Source of the DNA: a virus
Taxonomy: Duplodnaviria; Caudoviricetes
Strand: one strand, 5' to 3'
Virus record (IMG/VR): IMGVR_UViG_3300013121_000018
Coordinates: 32,001-96,000 of that record
Length of the DNA: 64,000 nt
The notes under the pieces are model-generated. The model saw only the letters and a program-made list of their open reading frames with translations, was not told the DNA's origin and did no database searches. A program made the translations under genes and the position numbers. Shown one piece after another: positions 9,067 to 38,342 of this stretch (position 1 is its first letter; each line of letters begins with the position of its first letter).

Positions 9067-9098
9067 TGGAAAAAGAAGTATGGTTTTATGAAATTTAA
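9066..9098 (+). pseudogene. remnant 5' end of an ancestral polB gene
   Basis: Mini-ORF MEKEVWFYEI* aligns with the PolB N-terminus KKIYVYDLE; the GIY-YIG ATG lies inside its TAT-GA codons. Confidence 0.5.
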
Positions 9099-20718: not shown

Positions 20719-20719
20719 T

Positions 20720-21522: not shown

Positions 21523-22230
21523 ATGCTAAGTAAATTAAATATACATGAAAGTTGGAATGATATTTTCGTTCCTCTTTTAAGTAGTGATACAGGACAAGAA
21601 TTGTTGCTACAGTTAGGTGATAAGTATCATCCTACAAAAGAAAGTATTTTCAGAGCATTCAGTATTCCTAAAGAGGACGTATGTCTTATTATAATAGGTC
21701 AAGATGTTTATCCTGATAAAAGACTTGCAACTGGATTAGCTTTTGGAGTACCTCCAGGAAAAGACTCTGTTTCTTTGAAAAATATAAGAACAGAAATTTA
21801 TCGAGATTTCCACGATGATCCTACAAGTGATATTTTCCTTATGAAAGAGGACGAATTTAACTTCTTATTCGATAACAGTTTAGAATATTGGCAAGAACAA
21901 GGTGTTCTTTTATTAAATTCTGCATTAACTTGTGGAGGAACTCCTGGTGATCATTGGGATATATGGCAACCGTTCATGTCATTATTAGTTACACAGCTTC
22001 CAGATGTACCTACAGTATTATTTGGAACTAAAGCAGCAACGTTGAAAGCTTTTATTAAAAATCCTATAATTGCTCCGCATCCAGCTTCAGATTCCTATGG
22101 AGGAGTCCGTAAGTTTTATGGATGTGGTGTATTTAGAGAAATACAAGAAAAAATACCAGACTTCAAATGGATAGAATACTTAAGTATTTCCTCACTTATG
22201 GAGGATACGACGGGGGATTTGCCTTTTTAG
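21523..22230 (+). CDS. ung: uracil-DNA glycosylase (family 1)
   Basis: IIGQDVYP, ATGLAF, SLKNI, W..QGVLLLNSALT, HPAS. Confidence 0.9.
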   Translation: MLSKLNIHESWNDIFVPLLSSDTGQELLLQLGDKYHPTKESIFRAFSIPKEDVCLIIIGQDVYPDKRLATGLAFGVPPGKDSVSLKNIRTEIYRDFHDDPTSDIFLMKEDEFNFLFDNSLEYWQEQGVLLLNSALTCGGTPGDHWDIWQPFMSLLVTQLPDVPTVLFGTKAATLKAFIKNPIIAPHPASDSYGGVRKFYGCGVFREIQEKIPDFKWIEYLSISSLMEDTTGDLPF

Positions 22231-23919
22231 GTAAATCTGTTAAGAATATTAACGATGCGGATTTGATTATTTTTACTGGTGGAGAAGATATTTCACCAGA
22301 ATTATATAATCAAAAAGCAAATACACATACAAGAGGTGTTAATATCAAACGTGATAGGCATGAAGTTGCTATATTCAACCTCTATAAAGATATTCCTAAA
22401 CTTGGTGTCTGTAGAGGACACCAACTAATTTCTGTGTTAGAGGGTGCTTCTTTGATTCAGCACGTTGATGGTCATCATACTAACCATAATATGAAAACGT
22501 TTGATGATCATACTATTGGAGTTACATCATGTCATCATCAAATGGTTATCTTCGACAAAGACATGGAAGAAGGTAAAGACTACTATCACTTAGGATGGTC
22601 TTCACCAGCAAAAGCTACTATGTATGTTGGAGAAAAAGGTATAGATATATATAGGGACGGTGTTAAACTTGCTAACAGATACTTTGAAGAATCCGAAATG
22701 GCTTTTTTTCCAAAATCAAATAGCTTGACTGTACAATTTCACCCTAAACATTTGGGGCTTGCATAAGTGATTGTGCATGAAACATCGCTTAAATTCGGTG
22801 AACTCCTTCAATATTTTGGAGAATACCGAGCCAAGCTATTCTTAGGTTAATAGAGAATAGAAGGTGTAACGACTACAGAGGTGAGCCTAACAATAATCCT
22901 CTGCACGAAAAAGCGATTACTTACTTTTATCAAAAACATCTTTATACTGCCACTTATATCCACCACAGGTAACATCTCTACCATTACAAACGTGTCTTAT
23001 ATTTTGTCTCCAAACATTATTTTTAATAGCAGCGTTTTGTAATGAGTAATATTCTTCAACAATATTTTCTTCAAAATCTAATTTATATACTGGTCGGCCA
23101 AGTTTTCTTTTTAAAGATTCTGGTCTATTTTTTCCTAATAAGCCTTGTCTTATTTTTTCACAAGTTTCTTTTCTTACTTTTCTTTTAAAGGTAATAGGAT
23201 GCTTCATGTTGGTGGAAATATTAAAACCTTTTTTTACTGAATTATATTTATTTATGTAATAAAGTTCTCGTTCCCATAAAAATTCATATGAGTTTTCATT
23301 AGGAATAAGTTCTAAAATATCAAATATAAAATTATTGACTCCGTATTTATTATACGCTCGTTGCAATTTTATATTATAATGCGCATTTTTTTCAAGTTTT
23401 AATAAATGGTTTTTCCATCTTTTATGAAAATTAGATTTGTTTCCTTTTGTGGAACCTATATAAGCTTTGTTATTTTTAACACAAAGTATTATATAAATAC
23501 CTGTAGATTTAATGTTTACCACAGATTCTGCAGTAGTAATGATGTTTGTATAAATTTTTACCATACTTGTTTTTTTACAAAGATAACTCTGTTTAAAAGT
23601 ACAAAATAGTTTTATGTAAAAAAATTAACAATTTTTGGTAATAACTAAGTTATAATGATAAAACAATTCTATATGAATGTAAATTCAATCATATGGAATG
23701 TAAGTAAATGATATAGTCTGAACTTACAGGATGATAAACTGTAAGAAGTATAGGATAAAGAGCCTATACGATAACATAATGGAATGGATGGACAATATGC
23801 TTGGACAAAAATATGTTAAAGAATTAGTTTTCAAGTTAGTTTCTAATAAACTTGAAGAACACATAATTCAATCAAAATTGAACATTGAATATGCACAAGA
23901 GCTCGATGCCCGTTTTTAA
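22167..23919 (+). CDS. class I glutamine amidotransferase / peptidase C26, two exons (22167-22745, 23782-23919; 238 aa spliced)
   Basis: TGGEDISP, GVCRGHQ nucleophile, SCHHQ; splicing restores QFHP|E. Confidence 0.88.
22917..23564 (-). CDS. intron-encoded GIY-YIG homing endonuclease (NUMOD1-like C-terminus)
   Basis: TGIYIIL..AYIGST, RWKNH, LQRAYNKYG, RELYYI, C-terminal GGYKWQY. Confidence 0.9.
   Translation of the reverse strand: MVKIYTNIITTAESVVNIKSTGIYIILCVKNNKAYIGSTKGNKSNFHKRWKNHLLKLEKNAHYNIKLQRAYNKYGVNNFIFDILELIPNENSYEFLWERELYYINKYNSVKKGFNISTNMKHPITFKRKVRKETCEKIRQGLLGKNRPESLKRKLGRPVYKLDFEENIVEEYYSLQNAAIKNNVWRQNIRHVCNGRDVTCGGYKWQYKDVFDKSK
23578..23585 (-). promoter_or_regulatory. putative Bacteroidota -7 promoter for the intron endonuclease
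   Basis: TATCTTTG (TAnnTTTG) 13 nt upstream of the ATG, with a TTTG further upstream. Confidence 0.6.
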
Positions 23920-24589
23920 TATTGTTAACTACAGTATAGGTAAATACTGTGAGGCTACAGATTACTTAGATCCACATCTAACATTATTGGAAGAAAATGG
24001 AAAAGATTTACATTGTTTATTTAAAGCATGTAGATGTAAGGACTTCTTCAACGAAGTTTTTAATAAAATATATACAGGTAACGACAGTACAATTTATGAC
24101 TTTTCCACGAACAATATTGATGTATCTAAGGTTAAAGATTCTGAATACTTTTATCTCCTTATGGTATCAAGAGAAGCCAATGATGCAAAAATATTTGATG
24201 CTGAAAACATTCAAAATTTCTTAGATTTATTTAATCCGAAATCTCAAGTAGTAAAAACAAACATGGAAAAAGGTATTGTCATTCGGTTTCATAGAAACTG
24301 GACAGACAGACCTTATCTGTTGTCAATGTTTTTAAATTTATGTAGAATAGGTTCCTTGTATAACAACGAAGGTTGGGAATCGTTTAAACAATTGTTGAGC
24401 AGCAAAGGCTTGTTTTGGAAACAAGGTTATGCAAGTTCACCTTGTTTAAATCAAGTAGCAAACAGTTTAAGAGTAATTGAAGATTATCTGAATGGAATTG
24501 TTCATGAACAAGCTTATTCAGATTATTCAAATACAAATGATTTACACAACCGTAGTGGAGCAGTAAGCTTCACTGCTAAATTAAAGTAA
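23891..24589 (+). CDS. hypothetical protein within the amidoligase cluster
   Basis: ~230-aa ORF with CRCKDFFNE motif; start uncertain. Confidence 0.7.
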   Translation: MHKSSMPVFNIVNYSIGKYCEATDYLDPHLTLLEENGKDLHCLFKACRCKDFFNEVFNKIYTGNDSTIYDFSTNNIDVSKVKDSEYFYLLMVSREANDAKIFDAENIQNFLDLFNPKSQVVKTNMEKGIVIRFHRNWTDRPYLLSMFLNLCRIGSLYNNEGWESFKQLLSSKGLFWKQGYASSPCLNQVANSLRVIEDYLNGIVHEQAYSDYSNTNDLHNRSGAVSFTAKLK

Positions 24590-24591
24590 TA

Positions 24592-25263
24592 ATGAAACAA
24601 ATAGGTCTTCTTTTGAAGGTAGATACCGGAAACGTCACAATTAATGACAGGTATATGCATTGGGTATCACAATTTGGAAACGTGCAATTCATCAACCCTC
24701 TTGATGAAAATGTATATGATTTAGATTTACTAATACTTCCTGGTGGAAGTGATGTGGATCCAGCAAGGTATGGTGAAAAACCAAAACCATATTGTCAGAA
24801 ACCCAATATCTTTGACGAATGGTTCGATAAGTTTATGTTGCCGAAATATATTGCAAAACAAATTCCTATTTTTGGAATTTGTAGAGGTTTTCAAACTTTG
24901 GCTGTACACTTTGGTGTTAAACTAACACAACATTTATATGCTCCGTATAGTGACCCAAGAGGAAAACTTGTAGAGAATTTGGAATTTAATCTTGAGGTAC
25001 AACCGTCTGATAGGGCATATAACATTGCTAAAATGGTTAAAAAAGGAAGTCCTGTTAAAGTAAACAGCTTACACCATCAAGGATTTTATCAATGGGATTG
25101 TGAAAAAAATCCTATGATACAAATTTTAGCAACTGCAAAAGAAGCATTGAATGTTGAAGTATTTAAAGTAAAGGATATGCCAATTTGTGCTGTACAATAC
25201 CATCCAGAAGAGATTGCATGTAACTATGCAGAAGCTCTTGTAAAAAGTTTATTAACAAAGTAA
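24592..25263 (+). CDS. peptidase C26 / gamma-glutamyl hydrolase-like class I GATase
   Basis: LPGGSDVDP.RYG, GICRGFQ, VNSLHHQ, AVQYHPE. Confidence 0.92.
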   Translation: MKQIGLLLKVDTGNVTINDRYMHWVSQFGNVQFINPLDENVYDLDLLILPGGSDVDPARYGEKPKPYCQKPNIFDEWFDKFMLPKYIAKQIPIFGICRGFQTLAVHFGVKLTQHLYAPYSDPRGKLVENLEFNLEVQPSDRAYNIAKMVKKGSPVKVNSLHHQGFYQWDCEKNPMIQILATAKEALNVEVFKVKDMPICAVQYHPEEIACNYAEALVKSLLTK

Positions 25264-25271
25264 TAACTTAA

Positions 25272-26126
25272 ATGACAAATAAAATTCAAAATATAACGTT
25301 GGGTTCAGACCCAGAGTATTTTGTAAAACACATTCCTACTAACACCATCGTTAGTGGGATTGGTTTTGTAGGTGGTACAAAAAATGAACCGCTTATTTTA
25401 GATAATGAAACTGGTATCACTCGTACAGAGGATTGTACCTTAGCAGAATTTCAGTTTCCACCAGTTACTTCTAAAGAGGATTGGTTGTATATGTTTAAGA
25501 AACTTGTTCAAAAAGGTAATGAACACCTTGGACAATATGATATGTGTCTAGTAACAGGTTCCTCACATATTTATGACGATGCTGAACTTCTTCATCCAAT
25601 GGCAAGAACATTTGGATGCTCTCCAAGTACTAATGCTTGGACAAAAGAAACACAGTATTCTTGTGGGCCAGAAGAAGCTGGTAATTTGCGTTCAGCAGGT
25701 GCACATATTCATATTGGAACTACTTCTGACATTTCTGAAGATGATGCATATAATCTTATTCGTGTTTTGGATGTATTTCTGGGAGTACCTTCTGTTTTGA
25801 TTGATACAGATACTCAAAGGAGGAAACTTTACGGAAAAGCCGGAGAATGCCGTTTTAGGGTTATCAAAGGTGTTATCGTAATGGAATATCGCACTTTAGG
25901 TGGCAATATGCTGGAATCGGAAGAGTTGATTGGTTGGATTTATGACCAAACTATGAAAGCAATTGAGTATTACAACACCGAGGGTGTAGAAAAAGTGAAT
26001 GCTTTCCGTGAAGAGATTATTGATTGTATTGATAATGTTAAAGAAAATCTTGCAAAAGATTTGATGTCAATCTTTAATCTAACAATTCCTTATTTGGAGT
26101 ATGTTAAAATCCATAACCATGCATAA
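25272..26126 (+). CDS. phiEco32-like COOH-NH2 ligase type 2
   Basis: TLGSDPEYF, GGTK, ED..LAEF, FGCSP, LRSAGAHIHIG, RRKLYGKAG, EYRTL. Confidence 0.88.
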   Translation: MTNKIQNITLGSDPEYFVKHIPTNTIVSGIGFVGGTKNEPLILDNETGITRTEDCTLAEFQFPPVTSKEDWLYMFKKLVQKGNEHLGQYDMCLVTGSSHIYDDAELLHPMARTFGCSPSTNAWTKETQYSCGPEEAGNLRSAGAHIHIGTTSDISEDDAYNLIRVLDVFLGVPSVLIDTDTQRRKLYGKAGECRFRVIKGVIVMEYRTLGGNMLESEELIGWIYDQTMKAIEYYNTEGVEKVNAFREEIIDCIDNVKENLAKDLMSIFNLTIPYLEYVKIHNHA

Positions 26127-26466
26127 AATAGCAGTATACGGAAGTTTAAGACAAGGTGAATATAATTTTGAGCGAATGTCTTATATAGGGGATATTCAAT
26201 ACGAAACAACAACAACCATTCAAGGATGGGACTTGTATAGTCTTGGTATGTATCCTGCAATAAAAAAGGGTACTGGTACAATTGTTGTAGATATTTTAAA
26301 CGTTGGTGATGAAGTATTGGATTTTATTCGTGGAATGGAATTTGGTGCAGGGTATCATGAAGAAACAGTCAATGTTGATGGACAAGATTGTTTCATTTAT
26401 GTATACAATTATGAACTATCTAGAAACCAGGTACTGTCTGGTGACTGGAAAAAACAAAACGATTAA
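26119..26466 (+). CDS. gamma-glutamylcyclotransferase (GGACT/AIG2-like)
   Basis: VYGSLRQG, LG.YPA, E..Y, SGDW. Confidence 0.9.
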   Translation: MHKIAVYGSLRQGEYNFERMSYIGDIQYETTTTIQGWDLYSLGMYPAIKKGTGTIVVDILNVGDEVLDFIRGMEFGAGYHEETVNVDGQDCFIYVYNYELSRNQVLSGDWKKQND

Positions 26467-26467
26467 T

Positions 26468-27922
26468 ATGTGTAATATAAGTGGAGCATTAAAACTACCG
26501 AATAAGAAATACCACAATAGTGATAAATTGAAACTTCTAGCACTATATGGTGCTGAAAGAGGTAAGGATTCTTTTGGTATTTGGTATGATGATAAAGTAC
26601 TTTATCATGTAAGGAGTACTTATGCAGTAACAGATGGCAACAGTTGTAGTGTATTTTTGAAATATCCGTTTCCAGAAAATATTCAGTCTAATATTGTACT
26701 TATGCACAATAGGCAGGCTACTGTAGGTGTTGTTAACGAAAATGCAGCACACCCATATATCATTGATAATGAAATGGTGGGAATGAAGAATGGTACTATT
26801 CACAATTATGAATATCTTGCCGATAAATATAAAATTAGTGAAAAAGAGTATGAGACTGATAGTGAACTCATACTGAAAATTATTCACAGGCATGGTTTGG
26901 AAGTCTTAAAAGAATATGTAGGTGGATGTGCAATTGCTTGGTTCAACTTGTCAGAACCCGACACTCTGTATCTCTGGAAAGGTGCTTCAATGGAATACAA
27001 TAGGTATGAAGAAGAACGTCCTCTATTCTACACATTCGATACAAACGGTACATTGTATTTCAACTCTTTGGAACCACCTCTAAAGTATGTTAATAATACA
27101 AGGACACCTATCCATAGTTTAAAAGAAAACACGGTATTTGCCTTTAAAAACGGTAAAATATCGGTTGTTGCTGAATTTGATCGTTCAAAAATGTCTCAGT
27201 CAAAACCATACAACAATACTGTATGGAACGGTTATTATGAAAAAGCAACCAATTCTTCAAAAGTAAAACATCTGCCGTCACCTAAACTTATTGAACCTTG
27301 TCCTCAAATAAGGGCTGCTGGAAACATTTACTATTACAAAGGTAAATACTGGAAAAACGGTCATATTGTTGAAGGTGTGCTTAATATCGATACTGATAGT
27401 GGAGAAATTTTATACGATAATAGTGGGACAAACTTGTTTTTTTACAAAGGTTGGTGGGTAAAGGATGCATTTACTTATAATAGGTTGAATTTTCCAGGAA
27501 ATGAAGATGCTCCTGATATTTTTGACATGCACCATGATGCTGTCACTGAATGTATTGACGGTTTCTTTTACAGAAATGGAAGTAAGTTGAATTATACATT
27601 CAAACCTAAGTTTGGTTATAACAATTACACCTTTTTAAACGGTTCCTTAACAGCAATTGCTGCAAATTTTGGGCCAGAGAAAACTGATAACACTAGAGAT
27701 GCTCTTCTTGATGCTGTTAATTACTATGTGTTTGGTAACTATACACAATGTTATTATAGCAGCAGAGAAGTTGCAGAAGCAGGTATTAAAGAGATTGATC
27801 CGACTATTAAGTTGAAGTGGACTACTGTTAATCAGATTCTGGAAGCATTGAAAAATTCAAAAAAAGCTAAAAACGAAGAAGAAATTGAAGAACAGCTTCT
27901 TCTTCAAAATTGGACAAGTTAA
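26468..27922 (+). CDS. class II (Ntn) glutamine amidotransferase with C-terminal extension
   Basis: Start MCNISG (N-terminal Cys nucleophile), RGKDSFG, HNRQAT, NAAHPY, NGTIHN, TDSE. Confidence 0.9.
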   Translation: MCNISGALKLPNKKYHNSDKLKLLALYGAERGKDSFGIWYDDKVLYHVRSTYAVTDGNSCSVFLKYPFPENIQSNIVLMHNRQATVGVVNENAAHPYIIDNEMVGMKNGTIHNYEYLADKYKISEKEYETDSELILKIIHRHGLEVLKEYVGGCAIAWFNLSEPDTLYLWKGASMEYNRYEEERPLFYTFDTNGTLYFNSLEPPLKYVNNTRTPIHSLKENTVFAFKNGKISVVAEFDRSKMSQSKPYNNTVWNGYYEKATNSSKVKHLPSPKLIEPCPQIRAAGNIYYYKGKYWKNGHIVEGVLNIDTDSGEILYDNSGTNLFFYKGWWVKDAFTYNRLNFPGNEDAPDIFDMHHDAVTECIDGFFYRNGSKLNYTFKPKFGYNNYTFLNGSLTAIAANFGPEKTDNTRDALLDAVNYYVFGNYTQCYYSSREVAEAGIKEIDPTIKLKWTTVNQILEALKNSKKAKNEEEIEEQLLLQNWTS

Positions 27923-27924
27923 AA

Positions 27925-29520
27925 ATGAGTACAAAAAAAAGTAAAAATAAGTTTGCTGCTCCTACATTAGCTGCTGTAAGTGAACCCAGTGTTGTAACAT
28001 ACACTGGGGATACTTATCCCAAAAGTGCCTGTAGGCGTATTGATAATGACTATTATCTTATCGGTGATAAAAATATCAAAGATTCTGGTCAAGTATTTCT
28101 TATCAATGATGTCTGGTATCGTCTGTCAACTAATAAGATTACATGGGACTATCGTAAAGAAGAATATGTAATTATTAGTAGTAGCACTTTGATTTACGGC
28201 TTGGTGGATGTCACAAAAGACAAAGAACCGGTTATGGGATATTTTACACCAGATGACCTGAAAGATATTATGGTCTATGATTACGGTGCGTCTGAATTTA
28301 TGGCTATGGATGAAAATATGGCATTAAAACTCCCAAATGCGGTACGATGTGTTTCAGATGGTGCTATAGTATTTTCCAAACTTAAAAACGTAAATTCTCT
28401 TAGTAGATTTGAAAAACATGCTAAAAGAAATTATCCCTCGTTTGATTTGAATAATTATGGATTTGCAAATAATCCTGGCGTTTCTCTTGTAAAAGAAAGG
28501 AATGCTAAATATATTAAAAGTAAAGAATTTACAGTAAATCCTACTATTGCAGAAATTGCAAAATTTCTTAAAGGCTATACATTTGGAGCAGAATTTGAAA
28601 CTGCATGTGGTACATTACCAACAAAAGAACTTCTTAAAACAGGATTAATTCCTGTTAAAGATGGTAGTATTTCTGGACATGAGTATGTTACTCTGGTTCA
28701 TCAAGGTGAACTAGGATTACAGCTTTTGATGGATGCAGCAAATGCATTAAGTACATGGACAACTCCAGATCAGTATTGTTCCTTACATATCCATATCGGA
28801 AATGTTCCTAGAACAAAAGAGTTTATCATCGCTATGTATATGTTGTCATACATGTTACAGCATGAATTACATGAAATCGTAGCTCCATACAAAAAAGATG
28901 TCGGTTATCTTGCATCTAAGAATCATGGCGCTAAAGACCACTGTAAATACTTGCAATCACTGAATCTATTTGGAAATCGCATTTATGATGTTCCTAAAGA
29001 ACAAAAACAAAGAGAAATCGATGTTGTCTTCAAAAATGTATTCGCATGGTTGAATGATGGACAGGGAGAAAATGTTAGAAATAATTTCGGAACAGGAGTA
29101 CATGTTAGACAAGACCGTCCTAAATGGGAATGGCAGTCTAGGTATTACTGGATGAATTTTTGCAATTTAGTATTTTCACCACATCATACAGTTGAGAACA
29201 GGTTGCATAGTGGAACAGTGAATCCAACTAAGACGTTGAATTGGTTATTGATTACTGTGGCAATGATAGATTTTGCCATTAATAATCAAGAAGAGATTAT
29301 TCGTGGCAAAACGAAGTATGCACTTGAGGATATTGTAAACAGATACTATAGAGTATCTGATAGTGGCAACATTATTGCCGATTATTTATTGGCATATATT
29401 CGTGACAGGAAAAACAATTTCTTTAATTTGTCTATGATGGGAGATATGTATGGCAATGAATTTGTAAATAAAAATACTTCCTTTGAACCTTGGGAAGTTT
29501 TGATTAAAAGACTCAAGTAA
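27925..29520 (+). CDS. putative amidoligase (Amidoligase_2, glutamine-synthetase-like fold)
   Basis: TFGAEFET, KDGSI, HEYVT, CSLHIHIG, RYYWMNF, TVENRLHSGT. Confidence 0.85.
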   Translation: MSTKKSKNKFAAPTLAAVSEPSVVTYTGDTYPKSACRRIDNDYYLIGDKNIKDSGQVFLINDVWYRLSTNKITWDYRKEEYVIISSSTLIYGLVDVTKDKEPVMGYFTPDDLKDIMVYDYGASEFMAMDENMALKLPNAVRCVSDGAIVFSKLKNVNSLSRFEKHAKRNYPSFDLNNYGFANNPGVSLVKERNAKYIKSKEFTVNPTIAEIAKFLKGYTFGAEFETACGTLPTKELLKTGLIPVKDGSISGHEYVTLVHQGELGLQLLMDAANALSTWTTPDQYCSLHIHIGNVPRTKEFIIAMYMLSYMLQHELHEIVAPYKKDVGYLASKNHGAKDHCKYLQSLNLFGNRIYDVPKEQKQREIDVVFKNVFAWLNDGQGENVRNNFGTGVHVRQDRPKWEWQSRYYWMNFCNLVFSPHHTVENRLHSGTVNPTKTLNWLLITVAMIDFAINNQEEIIRGKTKYALEDIVNRYYRVSDSGNIIADYLLAYIRDRKNNFFNLSMMGDMYGNEFVNKNTSFEPWEVLIKRLK

Positions 29521-29526
29521 AAGAGA

Positions 29527-30108: not shown

Positions 30109-30112
30109 CTGT

Positions 30113-30721: not shown

Positions 30722-31115
30722 TATTGCTCTTGAGAATAAAATAAATATTATACCTCAAGATTCGGAGTGGAAACTGCTTACAAAGGCAGTTTCCCTCGAA
30801 TCTAAGGGAGAACCATTCATAGGACAACTATTCGTAGCACAAACAATTATAAACCGTAAAAACGGCTGTAATTGCCCTGTAAGAGAAGTACTTACTAAAA
30901 AGTTTCATAGTAATCCTAATTATATCAAATGGATTGAAGCAGAACCATTGGATACTGCTTTAATGAGAAAATTAAGAATACTAGAAAATGTAAAGATACA
31001 TAGCTTCTGGTATTTTTATAATCTAAAAACTGCTACAGATACAAAATTCCTAAGAGCTATGAAAAAGAAAAAACATAAACTTCAAATCTATAACCATATA
31101 TTTGTTGAAAAATGA
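30711..31115 (+). CDS. cell wall hydrolase (SleB / Hydrolase_2-like)
   Basis: LLTKAVSLESKGEPFIGQLFVAQTIINR, YFYN, IYNHIF; start may be 30702. Confidence 0.75.
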   Translation: MIHSIALENKINIIPQDSEWKLLTKAVSLESKGEPFIGQLFVAQTIINRKNGCNCPVREVLTKKFHSNPNYIKWIEAEPLDTALMRKLRILENVKIHSFWYFYNLKTATDTKFLRAMKKKKHKLQIYNHIFVEK

Positions 31116-31342
31116 CAACAATAACATACTTTGGAGTTACTACCGAAACAGGTGGTGGAAAAAGACCTATCAGAAAAAGACATAACCAAAATTATAAATT
31201 ATATTCTTCTTATTATACAGAAGAAAAATTTCTTAGTTTAGGTAGAACATATGCGCTCGAATATCTTAAATTTAGAACAGATGGTAAAGTGATAGGAAAT
31301 GCACTTACAAGAATTAAAATTAATGATAAATATTTAACATGA
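31112..31342 (+). CDS. hypothetical phage protein
   Basis: ATGA-coupled ORF. Confidence 0.55.
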   Translation: MTTITYFGVTTETGGGKRPIRKRHNQNYKLYSSYYTEEKFLSLGRTYALEYLKFRTDGKVIGNALTRIKINDKYLT

Positions 31343-31572
31343 AACCATTAACCGACAAACAAAAAATAACCTTGGAAAGAGGCAGAGTATTATACAGATT
31401 AAAAGGAATAAAAGATTTAGTTTCTTATACAGAAAGTAATAAATTTACAGAAGATGAAAAAGATGCTTTATTTTCTATAATGACAGAAATACATTCTTTA
31501 GAAACAAGATGGTCATTTAATAATAGTAAAATACTTGAACAACATGATAAGACAAAACAAAATACAATGTAA
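31339..31572 (+). CDS. hypothetical phage protein
   Basis: ATGA-coupled ORF. Confidence 0.55.
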   Translation: MKPLTDKQKITLERGRVLYRLKGIKDLVSYTESNKFTEDEKDALFSIMTEIHSLETRWSFNNSKILEQHDKTKQNTM

Positions 31573-31879
31573 TAATTGTGGTGATATTATTGAATCTGTA
31601 CACGTTCATGATTTTAAATGGTGTAGTTGTGGTAATTGTGCAGTTGATGGTGGAAGAGAATATCTTAAACGTAACGGCATTAATTACAAAGATTTATCAA
31701 CTGTAGATATAGAACTTGAAAAGTTAACACAGTTATATAAACTTTTAAATATGTCCTTAGAAGCATTTAATAACATTCAGAATCAAAAAGTTTTAATAAG
31801 CGAGGGTTATGCTGTAACAGATACTTATCAGATTGCAGCAGCAATTAATAAATTTCTAAAAGATGAAACAAATACCTAG
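31544..31879 (+). CDS. Zn-finger phage protein
   Basis: NKIQCxxCGDIIES..HDFxxCSCGxxAVDGG, a widespread phage motif. Confidence 0.75.
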   Translation: MIRQNKIQCNNCGDIIESVHVHDFKWCSCGNCAVDGGREYLKRNGINYKDLSTVDIELEKLTQLYKLLNMSLEAFNNIQNQKVLISEGYAVTDTYQIAAAINKFLKDETNT

Positions 31880-32126
31880 TGCAGAAGAATTTTTAGAAAA
31901 AGAAAATTTACCAGATTCTTTAAGTGGAGGAACTCTAAAATATGCAATGATTGAATTTGCTAAAATGCATGTAGAAGCAGCATTAGAAGCTGCTGCCGAA
32001 AATGTTGGTATGAAAAAAGAATGTGGTTGTAAAACAGAATCAGAATGCTATGCTGTAATTTGCTGTGATACAGTAATTGATAAGGAATCAATACTAGACG
32101 CTTATCCTGAAAATTTAATACAATGA
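31863..32126 (+). CDS. hypothetical phage protein
   Basis: MIEFAKMHVEAALEAA..IDKESILxAYP, pattern seen in Bacteroidota phages. Confidence 0.7.
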   Translation: MKQIPSAEEFLEKENLPDSLSGGTLKYAMIEFAKMHVEAALEAAAENVGMKKECGCKTESECYAVICCDTVIDKESILDAYPENLIQ

Positions 32127-32488
32127 CAGAACACTTTTGCAATTATGAGAATAGCTTGATGTTAAAAGAATTGGGATTTGATGAAGAAAGTATAGCTATT
32201 CATATAGGAGGAAGCGTTTTTATGGGAGTATACGGTAGAAAAAATTCTATACAGGATGATAATTATCCTATAGCTCCACTTCTTTCTCAGGTAATACAGT
32301 GGATTTATCTGGAAGAAAATTATATCATCATAATCAATTGGGATTCAGACTTATTAGGTTGGAGATACCAAATTTTAGATAATGTTTTAGGGCGTATTAA
32401 AAGCAGTAATCAAGCTTATGAAACCTGGAATCAATGTGCGCAAGATGCTATTACTACAACTTTAAAAATAATTAAAGAAGATGTTTAA
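32123..32488 (+). CDS. hypothetical protein, paralog of 8586..8954
   Basis: LKELGFDE..APLLSQVIQW pattern. Confidence 0.7.
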   Translation: MTEHFCNYENSLMLKELGFDEESIAIHIGGSVFMGVYGRKNSIQDDNYPIAPLLSQVIQWIYLEENYIIIINWDSDLLGWRYQILDNVLGRIKSSNQAYETWNQCAQDAITTTLKIIKEDV

Positions 32489-32542
32489 AAAATCAGAACA
32501 ATTAGATTCTGGAGAAGTTGATTTAGAAACCGCAGAAACAGT

Positions 32543-32959
32543 ATGAAGAAAAAAGAATTAAAAACACTAGAAGAAATTGAAGAATACTTTGCTAAACAGC
32601 CTAAGATATATATTAAAAAAGAATATTCTAATTATAAAGACTTAGCTAAAGATATGGCTTGTGGTAAAGTTCCTACTTTTTATAAGAGGGGGAGACAACA
32701 AGCATATCCTTCTTCATATAGAAGTCTTACGGATATAATCAGAACATGTAAAACATATTTTAACGTGTCTGCTAAAGAAGTGTTATTGTATTTAGATACC
32801 TTAAATAACACTAGAAATAGATGCCATGTCATACGAAAGTATGTTTTTCATCATAATGAATATCCTTGGGGATTTCAAAAAACTCCAGGTCAGCTTCAAG
32901 TAAAAACCGAAATAGGTGATATGCGCTATGGAGATTTAATTAAACTTTGCCAAGAATGA
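32543..32959 (+). CDS. hypothetical protein, RSFxD..C..YFP family copy 3
   Basis: PTFY..QQ...YRSLTDIIRTCKTYF. Confidence 0.65.
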   Translation: MKKKELKTLEEIEEYFAKQPKIYIKKEYSNYKDLAKDMACGKVPTFYKRGRQQAYPSSYRSLTDIIRTCKTYFNVSAKEVLLYLDTLNNTRNRCHVIRKYVFHHNEYPWGFQKTPGQLQVKTEIGDMRYGDLIKLCQE

Positions 32960-33474
32960 AAGTAATTTTTACGTATGGAATTTCTGGTTCAGGTAAAAGT
33001 ACTTGGACTAGAAATTTCATACAATCAAATCCCAATTATATCCGAATAAATCGAGATGCAATTAGGGAAACTTTAATACCAGACCATATAAACAACTGGT
33101 ATAATAGACCAGACCGAGAACAACTTGAAAAGTTAGTATCTTCAATTGAGTACGATTTGACTGATATAGCTTACATACATGATAAAGATATTGTTATTGA
33201 CTCTACAAATCTTGATAAAAAGCGTTTAGAGGCATTTTTAGTCTATTTAAAGAAACATCATGATGAAGTAGATATATCTATCAAGATTTTTGAATGTCGT
33301 CTTAGAATAGCTCAAAATAGGGTATATCGAAGAGATTATGCTGGAGAAACCTTTGATGATGATGAATACTTTGATTTAGCAAACAAACCTCAAGTAGCAT
33401 ATATTGAAAAACAGTACAATAAATTTCAAGGTAATTTACCTTGGATAAAATCTTTACCTTATAATATAATATAA
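32956..33474 (+). CDS. polynucleotide-kinase-like P-loop kinase (AAA_33), second copy
   Basis: GISGSGKST, INRDAIRE, IVIDSTNL, RVYRR. Confidence 0.85.
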   Translation: MKVIFTYGISGSGKSTWTRNFIQSNPNYIRINRDAIRETLIPDHINNWYNRPDREQLEKLVSSIEYDLTDIAYIHDKDIVIDSTNLDKKRLEAFLVYLKKHHDEVDISIKIFECRLRIAQNRVYRRDYAGETFDDDEYFDLANKPQVAYIEKQYNKFQGNLPWIKSLPYNII

Positions 33475-33480
33475 AAGAAA

Positions 33481-33708
33481 ATGACAATAGAAGAATTAGA
33501 AAAATTAGGATTTGGTCATTTACAATCTAAACTTTACCCAAGAAGATTTTTTATGCCCATACTTGGAGAAAAAGATATTCCTGAATACTATAAACTTGAA
33601 AACATTTTTGAAATGTATTATGATAAAGGTGTTACTGATGGAATTGAGAAAGGGAAACGAGAAAAAATAAATCAGTTTAGAAAGTTTTTAGAACTTAATG
33701 AATTATGA
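33481..33708 (+). CDS. hypothetical phage protein
   Basis: 75-aa ORF. Confidence 0.55.
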   Translation: MTIEELEKLGFGHLQSKLYPRRFFMPILGEKDIPEYYKLENIFEMYYDKGVTDGIEKGKREKINQFRKFLELNEL

Positions 33709-33935
33709 CAACACTAGAAATATTAACTAAACTACTCGAACAAGATAAACATAAACTAATAGATACTCCTTTAAATAATGAATTAGATTTTATTCAAGAA
33801 GCAATGAAATTATATGCTCAACAATTTATTGATGTTGCTAATAAAATAATTGGGCCGGCCTCAGATATATTGGGTGAAGAATATGATGAAGAATATGAAA
33901 ATTGGCATAAAATTCAAAAAATAAATGAAGATTAA
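33705..33935 (+). CDS. hypothetical phage protein
   Basis: 76-aa ORF; AMKLYA motif resembles SMITYA in the next ORF. Confidence 0.55.
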   Translation: MTTLEILTKLLEQDKHKLIDTPLNNELDFIQEAMKLYAQQFIDVANKIIGPASDILGEEYDEEYENWHKIQKINED

Positions 33936-34191
33936 AACAACAGAAGAAATATTAAATGATCTTTCACTAGGAGAGTATAATGATAAATTTGAACATGTTC
34001 TTCTTCATATGATGTATGACGAAGATAAATATTCGGATTCAGATTCTTTTTATAAATTTATCAGAGATTCGATGATTACTTATGCAAAAGAAATCCTGAA
34101 AAAATTGTTTGAGGACGGTCTGGGAAACATTGATACAAATCAAAGCATTGATGATATTATCAAAAACTACAAAAGTTTAAAGTTAATATGA
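33925..34191 (+). CDS. hypothetical phage protein
   Basis: 88-aa ORF. Confidence 0.55.
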   Translation: MKIKTTEEILNDLSLGEYNDKFEHVLLHMMYDEDKYSDSDSFYKFIRDSMITYAKEILKKLFEDGLGNIDTNQSIDDIIKNYKSLKLI

Positions 34192-34808
34192 TAAAATTTG
34201 AAAAACTAGAATTTTCTCCAGAAGATATATGGTTTACATCAGACTTACATTATAATCATAAAAACATATCAAAAGATTCTGTATGGGACAGAACTGCTGC
34301 TGATGAAGACATTCGTCCTTGGGGTGTTGAAGAAATGAATCAAATTATTATCGATGAAATTAATTCTAAAGTACCTTATAATGGATTATTAATTCATCTT
34401 GGTGATTGGTCATTTGGTGGTTATCAAAAAGCTGTAGAGCTTAGAAGCAACGTATTCTGTGAAAACATTATAGGTTGTTATGGTAATCATGATCATAACA
34501 TACTGAATAAGAATGACTTAAGAAGTATGTTTTCTTATATAGACCATATTCTTTATTTGAATGTTGATAATCAAAATATAATGTGCAGTCATTATCCAAT
34601 GATTTCTTGGCATCAACAAAATAAAGGAACGTGGATGTTACACGGTCATTGTCATGGAAATCTTCTAGATAATCCTAATTTGAAATCTTTAGATGTAGGT
34701 TTTGATACTAAATTGTACAACCACAAACAATATACTCTGTATTCATTTGCTGAATTAAAAGCAATTATGGAACAGAAGGTATTTAAACCAGTAGACCATC
34801 ATGGATGA
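34188..34808 (+). CDS. calcineurin-like metallophosphoesterase
   Basis: TSDLH, HLGD, GNHD, SHYP, HGHCH, DVG. Confidence 0.92.
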   Translation: MIKFEKLEFSPEDIWFTSDLHYNHKNISKDSVWDRTAADEDIRPWGVEEMNQIIIDEINSKVPYNGLLIHLGDWSFGGYQKAVELRSNVFCENIIGCYGNHDHNILNKNDLRSMFSYIDHILYLNVDNQNIMCSHYPMISWHQQNKGTWMLHGHCHGNLLDNPNLKSLDVGFDTKLYNHKQYTLYSFAELKAIMEQKVFKPVDHHG

Positions 34809-35115
34809 TTTATTAATTGCTATAAGTGATATTGCACAAACTCGTAATCCATATGAATATGGACTTCCGACACATGATGAAGAATTATTAGCATTAATGT
34901 GTGAACAAATAAAACAATTTGTTAGTAAAAAATGTGCTGAACAAAGACAATTGTGTGTCGATAATGCTAAAATAAATGTTGAAGCTAAATTTAAAGGAGA
35001 AGTAAGAAATACACAAGCGAATTCTTATTTTTATGATTTTAAAGAACAAGGTGGGAAACGTGAAATTACTGTATACATAGAATCAATCATTAATGCACCA
35101 GAACCAATACTATGA
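34801..35115 (+). CDS. hypothetical phage protein
   Basis: 104-aa ORF. Confidence 0.6.
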   Translation: MDDLLIAISDIAQTRNPYEYGLPTHDEELLALMCEQIKQFVSKKCAEQRQLCVDNAKINVEAKFKGEVRNTQANSYFYDFKEQGGKREITVYIESIINAPEPIL

Positions 35116-35303
35116 AAAGTGATAAATACGAGAAGGAAACTCTAGTAATTTACAGAAAAGATGGAAGTATTCTTAAAGAAATTGATGTAACCAATTGGTC
35201 TTATATTCGTAAACTGGAAAAAAGAAATTCTTGTATGACAAAATTATTATCAGCAGATCATTGGGACATCATCCAAATAAGAAAAAAAGATGACGAAGAC
35301 TGA
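35112..35303 (+). CDS. hypothetical phage protein
   Basis: 63-aa ORF. Confidence 0.5.
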   Translation: MKSDKYEKETLVIYRKDGSILKEIDVTNWSYIRKLEKRNSCMTKLLSADHWDIIQIRKKDDED

Positions 35304-35440
35304 AGCAATCTATCAGGCATTTTGTGAGATTGTGCCGTTTACAAAAAAAGAAGTAACGGTGAGAGTTGAGGATGATACTGATGAATATGGTAATTTTGTT
35401 AGAGTGTATTTTGAAAAATCTGTTTCATCAAAAGTAAGAT

Positions 35441-35779
35441 ATGACAATAACATACGATGAAAGAATAATCGGAAATAAACTTATTGCTAACTTCATGGGT
35501 GGTAAGTATAAGATTTCTCAGGAGTATTTACCTATGGATTCTATGTGGCTTCCTACTCATGGTATATGTAAACATGATACTATAGAATTGGGAAAAGGTA
35601 AGATTTTTCAATATCATGCATCTTGGGATTGGTTAATACCAGTTGCAGCTAAAATTGCTATTATTTCTGAAGAACCTGAAGAATTAGATTCTTTAAAATC
35701 TGCAATATTATTTAATGATATTAACACTGCTTGGAAAGATTGTGTAAATTGGCTTAAAGAGCATACAATAAAACTATGA
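35441..35779 (+). CDS. hypothetical phage protein
   Basis: NKLIANFMG..YH.SWDWLIPV..KI motif common in Bacteroidota phages. Confidence 0.7.
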   Translation: MTITYDERIIGNKLIANFMGGKYKISQEYLPMDSMWLPTHGICKHDTIELGKGKIFQYHASWDWLIPVAAKIAIISEEPEELDSLKSAILFNDINTAWKDCVNWLKEHTIKL

Positions 35780-35952
35780 ACAACAGGAGAGTAATCAACA
35801 CTGTACAGTAGGTTTACTACTGAGGTGTACAAACATACTTTGAAACACTATGTTTGACTTGTTGTTTATCATTGGAATTACCGATGTTGTTGTTGGTTTT
35901 GTCGATTATTTAGCAATAATTGGCATTACTGATATAGAAGTCGGTTAATTCC
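35776..35952 (+). ncRNA. candidate structured ncRNA
   Basis: Multibranch domain closed by atgaacaacagg/cttgttgtttat, then a long G-U-rich hairpin ggaattaccga...tcggttaattcc. Confidence 0.5.
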
Positions 35953-35953
35953 T

Positions 35954-35984
35954 GAAGCGTCTGAAATATGACGCTTCTTTTTTT
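35954..35984 (+). terminator. intrinsic terminator
   Basis: gaagcgtc-tgaaatat-gacgcttc + T7. Confidence 0.85.
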
Positions 35985-35992
35985 AAAATTAT

Positions 35993-36505
35993 ATGACAAA
36001 AATAAAAATAGGATTAGACCTTGACGGCTGTATTGTCGATTTTACTGGTGGATTCTTTAAATGGTTTGATGAACCATTGCCTAAAATTACACAGTGGGAA
36101 GTTGATTTTATAAATGAGAATTTTGAACATATTGCTAACGATAAAGATTTTTGGCTTAGTTTAGATCCACTTATAGATCCAAAAGAACTGGAAGGAATTC
36201 CAGTTTACTGTTACATTACTGCTAGACCTGTAGATCCACATATAAGCTTTAAATGGCTTGAAATGCATGGATTTCCACTTGCACCAGTATTCGGTGTAGG
36301 TTCTGATGGTGCAAAGCATGACACTAAAACAGAAATTATTAGAGAACTTGGTATCAATTACTTTGTTGATGATAAGCGTCAACACTTTGATGAAATTAAT
36401 TCATGTACAGATTGTACATGTTTTCTAATGAATACACCTTGGACTGAATGGGAAACTGTTCAGCCTAAAATACACACGTTTCAAGAATTAAAAGAAGTAC
36501 TTTAA
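35993..36505 (+). CDS. HAD-family 5'(3')-deoxyribonucleotidase-like phosphatase
   Basis: GLDLDG, YITAR, K, FVDD. Confidence 0.85.
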   Translation: MTKIKIGLDLDGCIVDFTGGFFKWFDEPLPKITQWEVDFINENFEHIANDKDFWLSLDPLIDPKELEGIPVYCYITARPVDPHISFKWLEMHGFPLAPVFGVGSDGAKHDTKTEIIRELGINYFVDDKRQHFDEINSCTDCTCFLMNTPWTEWETVQPKIHTFQELKEVL

Positions 36506-36831
36506 TGGAACTTGGTGATAGATATAATGAAGGAAAACCGATGATGTCTTTAGTACCGCCAATTGCAATGACAGAAGTTGCTAAGGTGTTAACATATGGT
36601 GCTCAGAAATATGCAAAGAACAATTGGTTGAAGGGAAGACCTCACATGGAGTTTATTGACAGCATGGAAAGACATGTTGCTGAATGGAAGAAATGTATTG
36701 ATATTGACCCTGAAAGTGGGTTACATCATATTTCACATGCAGCATGTAATCTTATGATGCTGTTAGAATTAATAGCCTTACGTCCAGATTTGGATGATAG
36801 GCCATTAGAGTTTTACAATGAAAAAAAGTAA
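36505..36831 (+). CDS. dATP/dGTP diphosphohydrolase domain protein (DUF5664)
   Basis: G.RYNEGKP..SLVP, VLTYGAQKY..NNW..G, SMERH, DPESGLHH..HAACN. Confidence 0.85.
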   Translation: MELGDRYNEGKPMMSLVPPIAMTEVAKVLTYGAQKYAKNNWLKGRPHMEFIDSMERHVAEWKKCIDIDPESGLHHISHAACNLMMLLELIALRPDLDDRPLEFYNEKK

Positions 36832-37096
36832 ATATATGTACACATTGTTTTTTAAAAGTAAAGGTGGAGATTCTACAACAGGACAAGATACTGAATATCA
36901 TGCAGAAGTTGCTACTATTGAAGCAAATAATTTTGTCGAACTAGGAACTCAGGCTGATAAAATTATTTCAAATTTAGGACAGAATGTTGATGATTTTGCT
37001 ATCGATGTTTTAAATAGAGGTTCTGAATATGAAAACGCAAACGGAACAGGAAAAGAAATCATGAAAAATTATAATTCAAACTCAACATTAAAATGA
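36818..37096 (+). CDS. hypothetical phage protein
   Basis: 92-aa ORF. Confidence 0.55.
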   Translation: MKKSKYMYTLFFKSKGGDSTTGQDTEYHAEVATIEANNFVELGTQADKIISNLGQNVDDFAIDVLNRGSEYENANGTGKEIMKNYNSNSTLK

Positions 37097-37293
37097 GAGA
37101 CAAAATTACAGATGTATTAATTGGAATGTCGGCTGCTTATGAAGCCGCATTTAGGGAATTAACAGAAAAGTTCAAAGAAGTAAAAGAGCATATGGTTGAA
37201 TATCAAGAAACAACTTTACCAAATGGTAAAAAATCTGTACGTGCATATGCCGCAAACTTTGGTTATTCTTCATCATATGAGTTTCCGGCATAA
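37093..37293 (+). CDS. hypothetical phage protein
   Basis: 66-aa ORF. Confidence 0.55.
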   Translation: MRDKITDVLIGMSAAYEAAFRELTEKFKEVKEHMVEYQETTLPNGKKSVRAYAANFGYSSSYEFPA

Positions 37294-37531
37294 ATCTTTA
37301 AAAGAAGCATTGGAAAATACCACAGTTGAAGATTTAACAAGTGAATGGTATTCATTATCAGATTCTGAAATGAAACGACCTAAGATTGAAATTGCAGGTC
37401 GTTTATTTTCTTCAATTAAAGAAGCGGCACAACAAAGTGGTTTTGGTATTGGACAACTAAGAGGTTGGCTTAGAAGTAAAAACCCAACTAAAAGAATTCA
37501 ACATAAAATAAGAAGAGTCTATGAAGACTAA
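37277..37531 (+). CDS. small HTH (NUMOD1-like) DNA-binding protein
   Basis: KIEIAGRLFSSIKEAAQQSG...LRGWL. Confidence 0.6.
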   Translation: MSFRHKSLKEALENTTVEDLTSEWYSLSDSEMKRPKIEIAGRLFSSIKEAAQQSGFGIGQLRGWLRSKNPTKRIQHKIRRVYED

Positions 37532-38342
37532 ATTCAAAAAAAGATTTGCAAGAATCAGAAGCAAGCATCCTTCACATGCTCCACTTCGGGCAGCCATTCC
37601 TATAGATACCAAAGCTGTTGTAAGATTTGGTAGTACTACAGAAATGCCATCAGAATTCATTGAAATTAATCATAAAGATGTTGCTAGAATATCAGGTAAT
37701 AAACTGAAGATGAAACAAGCTTTTGATGAAGCTGGTGCTCAAACAGCCGTATGGATTAATCCAAGGTTATGTACAGGCACATCAGGTACAACTGTAGCAA
37801 ATGAATGTGCTAAATTAGGATTTCCAATTGTGGCAAAACATATATTTGGTTCTCAAGGTAAAGGCAACACTCTAATTAAATCAGAAGAAGAACTTTCAGA
37901 ATATTTGCAGGGTAAAACAGTAAACAATTATATCTTTGAAAAGTTTTATAACTACAGCAGAGAATATCGTTTACATGTTGATGCAGAAGGTTGTTTCTAT
38001 GCTTGTAGAAAGATGCTTAAATCAGATACTCCAGCAGAAGAAAGGTGGCACAGACATTCTGATACATCTGTATGGATTGTAGAAGAAAACGAAATGTTTC
38101 AAAGACCTAATACATGGGATGATATTGTAGAAGATTGTGTTGCTATTCTTAATGAAATCGGTGCTGATTTTCTTGCATTTGATGTTAAAGTCCAAAGTGA
38201 TGTAGACTCTAAAGGTTATCCTCGTGACAGACAAGAATATATCATCATTGAAGCAAATTCAGCTCCTTCATTGGGGGATAAAGGAATTGAAATCTACAAG
38301 AAAAGAATACCGCAAATGATTAAAAGAAAGACCGCCGTATGA
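37521..38342 (+). CDS. ATP-grasp amidoligase (phiEco32-like)
   Basis: VVRFGS, NKLKMK, FPIVAK..GSQGKG, EYRLHV, AFDV, IIEANSAP. Confidence 0.88.
   Translation: MKTKFKKRFARIRSKHPSHAPLRAAIPIDTKAVVRFGSTTEMPSEFIEINHKDVARISGNKLKMKQAFDEAGAQTAVWINPRLCTGTSGTTVANECAKLGFPIVAKHIFGSQGKGNTLIKSEEELSEYLQGKTVNNYIFEKFYNYSREYRLHVDAEGCFYACRKMLKSDTPAEERWHRHSDTSVWIVEENEMFQRPNTWDDIVEDCVAILNEIGADFLAFDVKVQSDVDSKGYPRDRQEYIIIEANSAPSLGDKGIEIYKKRIPQMIKRKTAV

Follow-up and report, generated by a model that had tools for sequence, protein, structure and literature searches.

A probable crAss-like form of the phiEco32/LUZ24-type ligase cassette and its likely role in gamma-glutamyl ligation, amidation and trimming

The window analyzed here is a stretch of 64,000 bases that spans bases 32001-96000 of the 107,581-bp IMG/VR virus record IMGVR_UViG_3300013121_000018, which is rated 97% complete. 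Its plus strand encodes a set of carboxylate-amine ligases, glutamine amidotransferases (GATases) and gamma-glutamyl-cleaving enzymes, referred to below as the cassette, which we read as a probable counterpart of the enzyme set of phages phiEco32 and LUZ24. Eight features had been named at this locus by a sequence-only reading, and Pfam, PHROG and fold searches found all eight in place. Two gene starts were set anew: the class II GATase, for which a TTG start at 26303 had been given, begins at ATG 26468 with Met-Cys, and the amidoligase begins at 27925. The genes that we assign to the cassette are as follows.

22167-22766, plus strand: C26a, an aberrant class I GATase/peptidase C26 paralogue (PF07722, E = 2.1e-17).
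24592-25263, plus strand: C26b, an intact class I GATase/gamma-glutamyl hydrolase-type enzyme (PF07722, E = 2.8e-28).
25272-26126, plus strand: phiEco32-type COOH-NH2 ligase type 2, a GCS2/YbdK-like carboxylate-amine ligase (PF14395, 46.3 bits against a cutoff of 25; phrog_3815, E = 1.2e-53).
26101-26466, plus strand: GGACT/AIG2-like gamma-glutamyl cyclotransferase (PF06094, E = 5.7e-15).
26468-27922, plus strand: class II, or N-terminal nucleophile (Ntn), GATase of 484 amino acids (PF13522, E = 4.6e-15).
27925-29520, plus strand: long amidoligase of 531 amino acids (phrog_2443, E = 5.5e-32; Pfam Amidoligase_2, 19.8 bits, below the cutoff of 22).
37521-38342, plus strand: RimK/PurK-like ATP-grasp ligase (PF02222, 28.1 bits; phrog_2599, E = 2.8e-23), overlapping the start of the dUTPase gene.

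Megablast of the cluster against the phage collection gave no match. At the protein level, tblastn with the amidoligase against isolate and reference phages gave five matches, to the Steigviridae phages phi14:2 and cr108_1 (two records each) and to Leptolyngbya phage Lbo-JY46; a scan of viral contigs with the single protein found nothing, and a profile of 25 homologues recovered the related loci, at least 189 in IMG/VR with the same long amidoligase, many of them on contigs of 95-109 kb. Open reading frames (ORFs) were labeled by iterative profile search in 80 of these 189 loci and in the three isolates (n = 83), and the 66 loci with at least 8 kb upstream and at least 5 kb downstream were treated as full-flank loci.

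The ATP-grasp ligase, the COOH-NH2 ligase, the Ntn GATase and the amidoligase were found together in 64 of the 66 full-flank loci, and at least one gamma-glutamyl-cleaving enzyme (GGACT or C26) was present in all 66. Both kinds of cleaving enzyme occurred in 52 loci, C26 only in 7 and GGACT only in 6; one locus of the last kind lacked the ATP-grasp ligase, and none lacked both cleaving enzymes. Copy numbers of C26 and of GGACT range from 0 to 3 between loci, with two copies the commonest state for C26 (36/66). Duplication of C26 is thus not the lineage-specific trait that had been suspected, and the cyanophage Lbo-JY46 also has both paralogues. In every one of the 83 loci the Ntn GATase gene adjoins the amidoligase gene, as it does in phiEco32 and LUZ24, and the pair is reported to occur alone in OM43 phages (PMC10580990). 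Gene order otherwise varies among the related loci, and clustering of ORFs across the cassette region of these loci revealed no further conserved family inside the cassette. Catalytic residues are conserved across 25-90 orthologues. Because the same families stand together in 64 of 66 loci and again in the unrelated podophages phiEco32 and LUZ24, the clustering is far beyond chance, and the expectation that the genes would co-occur across phages was borne out.

Comparison with phiEco32 (gp77-gp88) and LUZ24 (gp14-gp22) places the window's genes in the same kind of cassette. Both phages encode a GGCT-like protein, an ATP-grasp ligase, a COOH-NH2 ligase type 2, an Ntn GATase and a GS-fold amidoligase (GS, glutamine synthetase), and all five families are present in the window, with the ATP-grasp gene displaced. 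The window's COOH-NH2 ligase is 32.8% identical to phiEco32 gp86 (E = 2e-25) and also matches LUZ24 gp16 by tblastn; its homologues occur in 306 phage records (Pseudomonas 120, Escherichia 93, Vibrio 21 and others). Using hhalign, the Ntn domain was matched to phiEco32 gp83 with a probability of 98.5%, and the amidoligase to gp84 with a probability of 87% (E = 4e-6) over 54 columns that cover the catalytic motif, so the resemblance to phiEco32 proposed by the sequence-only reading is upheld. Profile searches further tied the GGACT protein to phiEco32 gp77 and LUZ24 gp22, and the ATP-grasp ligase to its phiEco32 and LUZ24 counterparts. The window phage resembles the other two in carrying the cassette in its early/replication arm, adjacent to a primase or primase/helicase gene; gene order differs, and C26 hydrolases are present in addition. 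The uncharacterized partner proteins of the two reference cassettes, phiEco32 gp85, gp87 and gp88 and LUZ24 gp14, gp15 and gp17, had no detectable homologue in any related crAss-like locus searched.

Closer counterparts are found in phi14:2 (g037-g041), cr108_1 (gp028-gp034; Steigviridae, Asinivirinae) and Lbo-JY46, whose long amidoligases are 28-32% identical to that of the window over about 90% of their length. All three share the long Ntn GATase, the COOH-NH2 ligase and the ATP-grasp ligase (42-45% identity in phi14:2 and cr108_1; 35% in Lbo-JY46), and Lbo-JY46 has both C26 paralogues, like the window. In phi14:2 and cr108_1 the cassette genes are already annotated and lie between the primase and uracil-DNA glycosylase (UDG) genes, with UDG downstream, whereas in the window UDG is upstream. 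The window copy differs further in having a homing endonuclease gene and an unrelated gene between the C26 genes, together with a truncated C26a. The cr108-like phages (L002:4147-6048, which is cr108_1; L079, L081 and L083) also have a paralogous pair of uncharacterized proteins of about 300 amino acids in the cassette, upstream of C26 and the COOH-NH2 ligase. This position resembles that of phiEco32 gp87/gp88 and LUZ24 gp14/gp15, and no sequence similarity was detected between the three pairs.

The ATP-grasp ligase, which was found in 79 of the 83 loci, lies within the cassette in phi14:2, cr108_1 and Lbo-JY46, whereas in the window it lies about 8 kb downstream beside dUTPase, with small unrelated genes filling the roughly 7 kb (30113-37520) that separate it from the amidoligase block. 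The enzyme shares 45% identity (E = 5e-82) with its in-cassette counterpart in the Cellulophaga phage phi14:2 (g038), and two other loci (L029 and L046) also carry it downstream, after a RusA-like gene and the homologue of the gene at 30113-30721. On the strength of this identity and of the downstream position in these two loci, the ligase at 37521 is a member of the set, the orthologue of the relatives' in-cassette ATP-grasp ligase, displaced about 8 kb downstream; its inclusion in the pathway by the earlier reading was sound.

The remaining two ligases have different folds. The COOH-NH2 ligase retains its conserved Arg/Glu set. The structural model of the amidoligase (predicted local distance difference test score (pLDDT) 88.5) comprises an all-beta domain at residues ~20-170 and a catalytic domain at residues ~192-516 with the fold of GS, gamma-glutamylcysteine synthetase (GCS) and PafA. 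Residues 192-516 matched GS-fold ligases at Z scores of 9-11, among them GS, GCS, the gamma-glutamylmethylamide synthetase GmaS, 1-naphthylamine GS, YbdK and PafA/Dop, while neither the amidoligase nor the COOH-NH2 ligase matched any solved structure in profile and sequence searches. Invariant positions of the amidoligase are E223, E225, E253, H288, E424, R426 and H428, a pattern that appears to resemble the metal- and phosphate-binding set of the GS fold.

The amidoligases of phiEco32 and LUZ24 have 367-391 amino acids and lack the N-terminal beta domain, which accounts for about 170 extra amino acids in the 531-amino acid window copy. For this domain, the suggestion that the added segments are lineage-specific holds; it fails for the long extension of the Ntn GATase, since the phiEco32 (676 amino acids) and LUZ24 (510 amino acids) enzymes also have a long C-terminal extension, though one with no detectable similarity to that of the window copy. 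No informative fold match was obtained for the N-terminal beta domain (structural matches covered residues 192-516), and the named Atlas clusters gave no match. A search with the domain gave 159 matches (E <= 0.001) among cluster representatives of 1.84 billion proteins; among the 150 matches listed, it stood nearly always at the N-terminus, mostly in proteins of amidoligase length and in some short ones, and no clue was gained from their context. Comparison by hhalign with the C-terminal domain of the GATase indicated no homology, and phiEco32 gp85 did not match the domain.

The fold of the amidoligase raises the possibility of protein tagging or tailing, in which the GS/PafA-fold ligase and the RimK-like ATP-grasp ligase would attach glutamate or a short peptide to proteins of the host or the phage, with C26 and GGACT as erasers. 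This corresponds to the write/erase glutamylation of the sequence-only reading, which sequence data do not separate from its other suggestion, a small-peptide metabolite. The catalytic domain shares its GS-like fold with PafA and Dop (Z = 8.8-9.7), the ATP-grasp ligase has weak RimK-family matches, and human GGACT acts on epsilon-(gamma-glutamyl)-lysine. However, the Z scores to PafA are no better than those to the small-molecule GS and GCS enzymes, and the cassette differs from the PafA/Dop system in having neither a Pup-like gene nor a proteasome context and in that its amidoligase shows no sequence similarity to any solved chain. Neither a Pup-like gene nor any other small conserved substrate gene was found in or beside the cassette in the 83 loci. 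Among 85 products of the plus-strand arm, no C-terminal peptide of at least five residues was common to more than two, and a single 5-mer (TLKII) occurred in two proteins. We regard tagging as quite improbable.

Returning to the pathway that we favor, its amidotransferase component starts at ATG 26468, one base past the stop codon of GGACT, and its Met-Cys start would place the Ntn nucleophile at position 1 once the methionine is removed. The model has a glutaminase domain at residues 1-240 (Z = 21-24 to PurF, GlmS, AsnB and EgtC), followed by a disordered linker, a moderately confident beta domain at residues ~280-400 to which no fold was assigned, and a low-confidence tail; the beta domain contains conserved Tyr/Gly motifs. 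Invariant residues are C2, R82, N108, G109 and D131, and C2, R82, N108-G109 and D131 look equivalent to the GlmS/PurF residues that hold the free alpha-amino and alpha-carboxyl groups of glutamine or of a gamma-glutamyl compound.

A leader of 22-48 amino acids directly precedes the catalytic Cys in 41 of 81 Ntn GATase orthologues from related loci (for example, L028:8089-10008 and L001:7092-9008, the latter being phi14:2 g040). A single, strongly hydrophobic helix, then a basic stretch and lastly a small residue make up this leader, which, given its position before the catalytic Cys, would have to be removed for Ntn activity. The other 40 orthologues, the window copy included, begin with Met-Cys or nearly so (two have 3-4 residues before the Cys), and the trait differs between close relatives.

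Such a leader hints at membrane proximity, and it is one of the points that bear on a role in modification of the cell envelope, in which the enzymes would act on the stem peptides of peptidoglycan precursors, or on a related envelope polymer, for example by adding or amidating glutamate-type residues, thereby blocking superinfection or tuning lysis. The stem peptide contains gamma-linked D-Glu and is amidated in many bacteria. Modification of peptidoglycan or the cell wall is also what Iyer et al. 2009 (Iyer, Abhiman, Burroughs and Aravind, Mol Biosyst), who described the cassette (Pfam PF14395 and PF12224) by comparative genomics, are cited as having proposed (PMC11945000, PMC10580990). Against this, the cassette genes include no Mur ligase, transpeptidase, lipid-carrier or exported component, the window's Ntn GATase has no leader, and the ligases need ATP, so that cytoplasmic precursors are the only possible substrates. 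Moreover, the hosts of cassette-bearing phages have very different walls (Bacteroidota-type, Pseudomonadota and cyanobacteria). Envelope modification is in our view an unlikely explanation, albeit one that deserves to be taken seriously.

The two C26 genes differ in condition. C26b keeps the full triad of Cys97, His204 and Glu206, and the solved structures that match it best are PuuD (6vtv, E = 1.4e-7) and a probable glutamine amidotransferase of P. aeruginosa (7d4r). C26a keeps Cys82 and His192, but the position of the triad Glu, 194, is occupied by Lys (HPK for the family's HPE), the protein stops six residues past the His and its C-terminal helix is gone, so neither the complete triad nor the complete fold is present. 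All 25 C26a-type proteins inspected from related loci have an intact HPE followed by at least 20 more residues, and no remnant of the missing end was found downstream of the window's gene. Two C26 genes are present, as originally described, yet one of them is truncated and without its triad Glu, and C26a is probably impaired. Two features lie between them, the first of which the sequence-only reading did not mention.

22917-23564, minus strand: GIY-YIG homing endonuclease, antisense to the cassette and not part of the pathway (PF01541, E = 1.2e-11; phrog_314, E = 7.1e-27).
23885-24589, plus strand: protein without a recognized family and not conserved as part of the cassette.

Together these form an insertion of about 1.8 kb between C26a and C26b; in relatives with the same layout (L007, L008 and L011), C26b directly follows C26a. 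The protein encoded at 23885-24589 had no Pfam, PHROG or NCBIfam match, its Atlas matches were Bacteroidota hypothetical proteins only and its model had a pLDDT of 0.33. Twenty loci encode homologues, in most cases at a distance of 9-10 kb downstream from the amidoligase, and the earlier listing of this protein as a member of the cluster is accordingly withdrawn. Our reading is that the insertion may have disturbed the 3' end of C26a and that the 23885-24589 protein is a presumed passenger, the contigs of the nearest relatives (L087 and L088) ending short of the C26 region.

The cleaving enzymes also bear on a catabolic or salvage role, in which the set would break down gamma-glutamyl compounds of the host, such as polyamine conjugates and gamma-glutamyl peptides, and channel the glutamate and ammonia into nucleotide synthesis by the phage. 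Both C26 and GGACT are degradative enzymes, the closest relative of C26b is PuuD, a gamma-glutamyl-GABA hydrolase, and the number of C26 and GGACT copies varies from locus to locus. The invariant core, however, consists of three ATP-consuming ligases and the Ntn enzyme rather than of hydrolases, and salvage would not need three different ligases. Of the readings considered, this one is the least credible to us.

We favor a pathway in which ligation and cleavage of gamma-glutamyl bonds are combined. The window encodes three ATP-dependent carboxylate-amine ligases of different folds (ATP-grasp, GCS2-like COOH-NH2 ligase and GS-fold amidoligase), all with family-conserved residues kept, and two kinds of enzyme that cleave gamma-glutamyl bonds (GGACT and the PuuD-like C26). 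Nearest solved relatives are gamma-glutamyl-amide hydrolases for C26b and gamma-glutamyl-forming ligases for the amidoligase (1-naphthylamine GS, GmaS, GCS and PafA/Dop). A comparable pairing is known from E. coli PuuA/PuuD, butirosin BtrJ/BtrG and ergothioneine EgtA/EgtC, where a GS/GCS or ATP-grasp ligase forms a gamma-glutamyl amide that is later removed by a C26, GGCT-fold or Ntn enzyme. The cassette shares with these pathways the pairing of ligase and hydrolase folds, with C26b nearest to PuuD and the Ntn domain matching EgtC at Z = 21.8. It differs from them in that there is no orthology (all NCBIfam matches were far below equivalog cutoffs) and in that each of those pathways uses one ligase and one hydrolase, whereas the cassette has three ligases and no substrate-modifying enzyme between ligation and removal.

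By analogy with these characterized folds, we consider it reasonably probable, if far from assured, that the cassette is a crAss-like version of the phiEco32/LUZ24-type cassette and encodes a pathway for ATP-dependent gamma-glutamyl ligation, amidation and trimming on a non-DNA acceptor. A GS/GCS-fold ligase would activate a glutamate-type gamma-carboxylate as an acyl phosphate and join it to an amine acceptor, to which the ATP-grasp ligase would add a further residue. The Ntn GATase may form a two-protein unit with the adjacent amidoligase, passing glutamine-derived ammonia to the carboxylate that the amidoligase has activated, or may instead remove a gamma-glutamyl group in the manner of EgtC. 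GGACT, C26 or both would then strip the gamma-glutamyl group as 5-oxoproline or glutamate, such that gamma-glutamyl would act as a temporary carrier or protecting group, a role known from the Puu, BtrJ/BtrG and EgtA/EgtC pathways. As acceptor we favor a cytoplasmic small amine or peptide over DNA, with a cell-wall precursor as one candidate.

Several points weigh against this interpretation. The order of steps and the nature of the activated carboxylate are drawn from analogy with characterized folds, and the conserved residues of the Ntn enzyme do not, as far as sequence goes, separate an ammonia donor (glutaminase) from an EgtC-like gamma-glutamyl hydrolase. With one C26 copy probably defective, to speak of two hydrolases overstates the set of the window phage. 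The related loci are not phylogenetically independent, and the count of 64 of 66 therefore overstates the number of independent tests. Finally, neither biochemical data for any cassette member nor an experimental product was found in the literature searched, in line with the earlier remark that no product had been demonstrated.

A further proposal concerns the extension domains. The beta domains at the C-terminus of the Ntn GATase and the N-terminus of the amidoligase could dock onto each other, which would make the pair a new kind of class II amidotransferase in which a separate GS-fold ligase serves as the 'synthase' half and receives its ammonia in trans, and the amidated gamma-glutamyl product would then be a phage metabolite or envelope modification used in the contest with the host. 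Docking is suggested because both domains occur together and are absent or different in phiEco32 and LUZ24; we put it forward as a speculative idea with a low chance of being right.

Genes that flank the cassette serve as markers of its position and are not assigned to the pathway.

19723-20718, plus strand: DNA primase (phrog_12622, E = 1e-21), a flanking marker; the cassette lies downstream of the primase in 76 loci.
21523-22230, plus strand: family 1 UDG (phmmer to solved UDGs, E = 1e-14; motifs GQDVYP and HPAS), a flanking marker.
29527-30108, plus strand: RusA-like resolvase (phrog_244, E = 7.4e-10), a downstream flanking marker.
30113-30721: product of 202 amino acids with no assigned function (phrog_14962); homologues in 68 of the 83 related loci, 2-5 kb downstream of the amidoligase.

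The last of these is probably a gene of the replication module and not a member of the cassette. From C26b to the RusA-like gene (24592-30108), neighboring genes are spaced by -26 to +8 bases, a spacing that fits a single transcription unit. Scans for sigma-70-type promoters and for the Bacteroidota TAnnTTTG motif were both at chance level, and terminator-like hairpins were more numerous than in shuffled sequences (11 versus 3.5) and lay mostly within genes. A search of sequencing runs found only small word shares in DNA runs, with no RNA run among the matches listed.

Other genes of the arm have features of their own. The ORF at 20513-21514, upstream of UDG, ends in ...EDSEFMEGDSPF and UDG ends in ...TTGDLPF, both like the acidic C-terminal tail of bacterial single-stranded DNA-binding protein; in the related loci, 18 primases have a C-terminal acidic-x-[ILMVF]PF, while UDG orthologues end in I-x-W or I-x-F instead. 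The 206-amino acid product of 34188-34808 has a Pfam match to SNAPC3, a subunit of the eukaryotic snRNA-activating complex (E = 1.4e-6, 28.5 bits against a cutoff of 23.8). The 108-amino acid product of 36505-36831 matches the N-terminal domain of dATP/dGTP diphosphohydrolase (PF18909, E = 3.7e-31), which is MazZ-like, a type known from phages whose genomes contain 2-aminoadenine; the scanned ORFs included no PurZ-like gene.

This neighborhood bears on possible hypermodification of DNA or nucleotides, in which modified bases or nucleotide precursors would be decorated by the ligases, as has been suggested for amidoligase and amidotransferase genes located close to thymidine-hypermodification genes. 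Primase, UDG, dUTPase and the MazZ-like diphosphohydrolase domain are neighbors of the cassette in this arm for replication and nucleotide metabolism, and Pfam amidoligase and glutaminotransferase genes have been reported in some 5-HMUDK/aGPT-Pplase contigs (Lee et al. 2021; PMC8989533). However, the plus-strand ORFs scanned with Pfam (among them all those of at least 250 amino acids in the window) included no thymidylate-synthase-like hydroxymethylase, aGPT-Pplase, TET/JBP or DpdA. Two AAA_33 P-loop kinases are encoded 8 kb upstream and 3.4 kb downstream of the cassette; both are distant from it, and in a close relative one such gene follows an RNA ligase gene at a distance of about 1.5 kb, suggestive of RNA repair. 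UDG has the family 1 Asp and His motifs (GQD... and HP[AS]S), and no DNA-binding or base-flipping domain was found in the cassette. Hypermodification is very improbable in our judgment, and a non-DNA acceptor is retained in the pathway that we propose.

Beyond the cassette, the window has a GC content of about 31%. Its plus-strand early/replication arm stops at 38770, where an opposed minus-strand late arm begins. The source virus is probably crAss-like: the 107.6-kb record has two opposed arms, the Sak4-primase-cassette-UDG synteny is shared with Steigviridae phages, and the giant ORFs match phrog_16227. A 516-amino acid protein of the minus-strand late arm, which had no tblastn match in the phage collection, weighs against a crAss-like placement. 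Consecutive parts of phrog_16227, a virion structural protein family of 4401 positions, are matched by the minus-strand ORFs at 48683-57775 (3030 amino acids) and 43286-47725 (1479 amino acids), and a LAGLIDADG homing endonuclease gene (47742-48515, minus strand) sits between them, such that a homing endonuclease appears to have divided the gene for a giant virion protein. Genes for homing endonucleases number at least four, in three classes (two GIY-YIG, one LAGLIDADG and one HNH), and lie at 9088-9789 (plus), 22917-23564 (minus), 47742-48515 (minus) and 59774-60721 (minus). The window also has two tRNA genes, Leu(TAA) and Arg(TCT), at 57-143 and 3525-3598.

The peculiarities of the window copy, namely its displaced ATP-grasp gene, intruding homing endonuclease and damaged C26 paralogue, are ordinary phage genome turnover; they supply comparative clues only and leave the overall picture unchanged. 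That picture concerns one of the most widespread phage enzyme sets without a known product, with homologues of its marker ligase in 306 isolate phage records and its crAss-like form in at least 189 IMG/VR loci. Pared down to six families, with no conserved uncharacterized partner, this form reveals the obligatory parts of the set. These are the three ligases, the Ntn enzyme and one or more gamma-glutamyl-cleaving enzymes, with the Ntn GATase and the amidoligase always together. Knowledge of these parts and of the constant pair yields a short list of proteins to express and assay, and phi14:2 is an isolate with a cultured host that carries the same form of the cassette.

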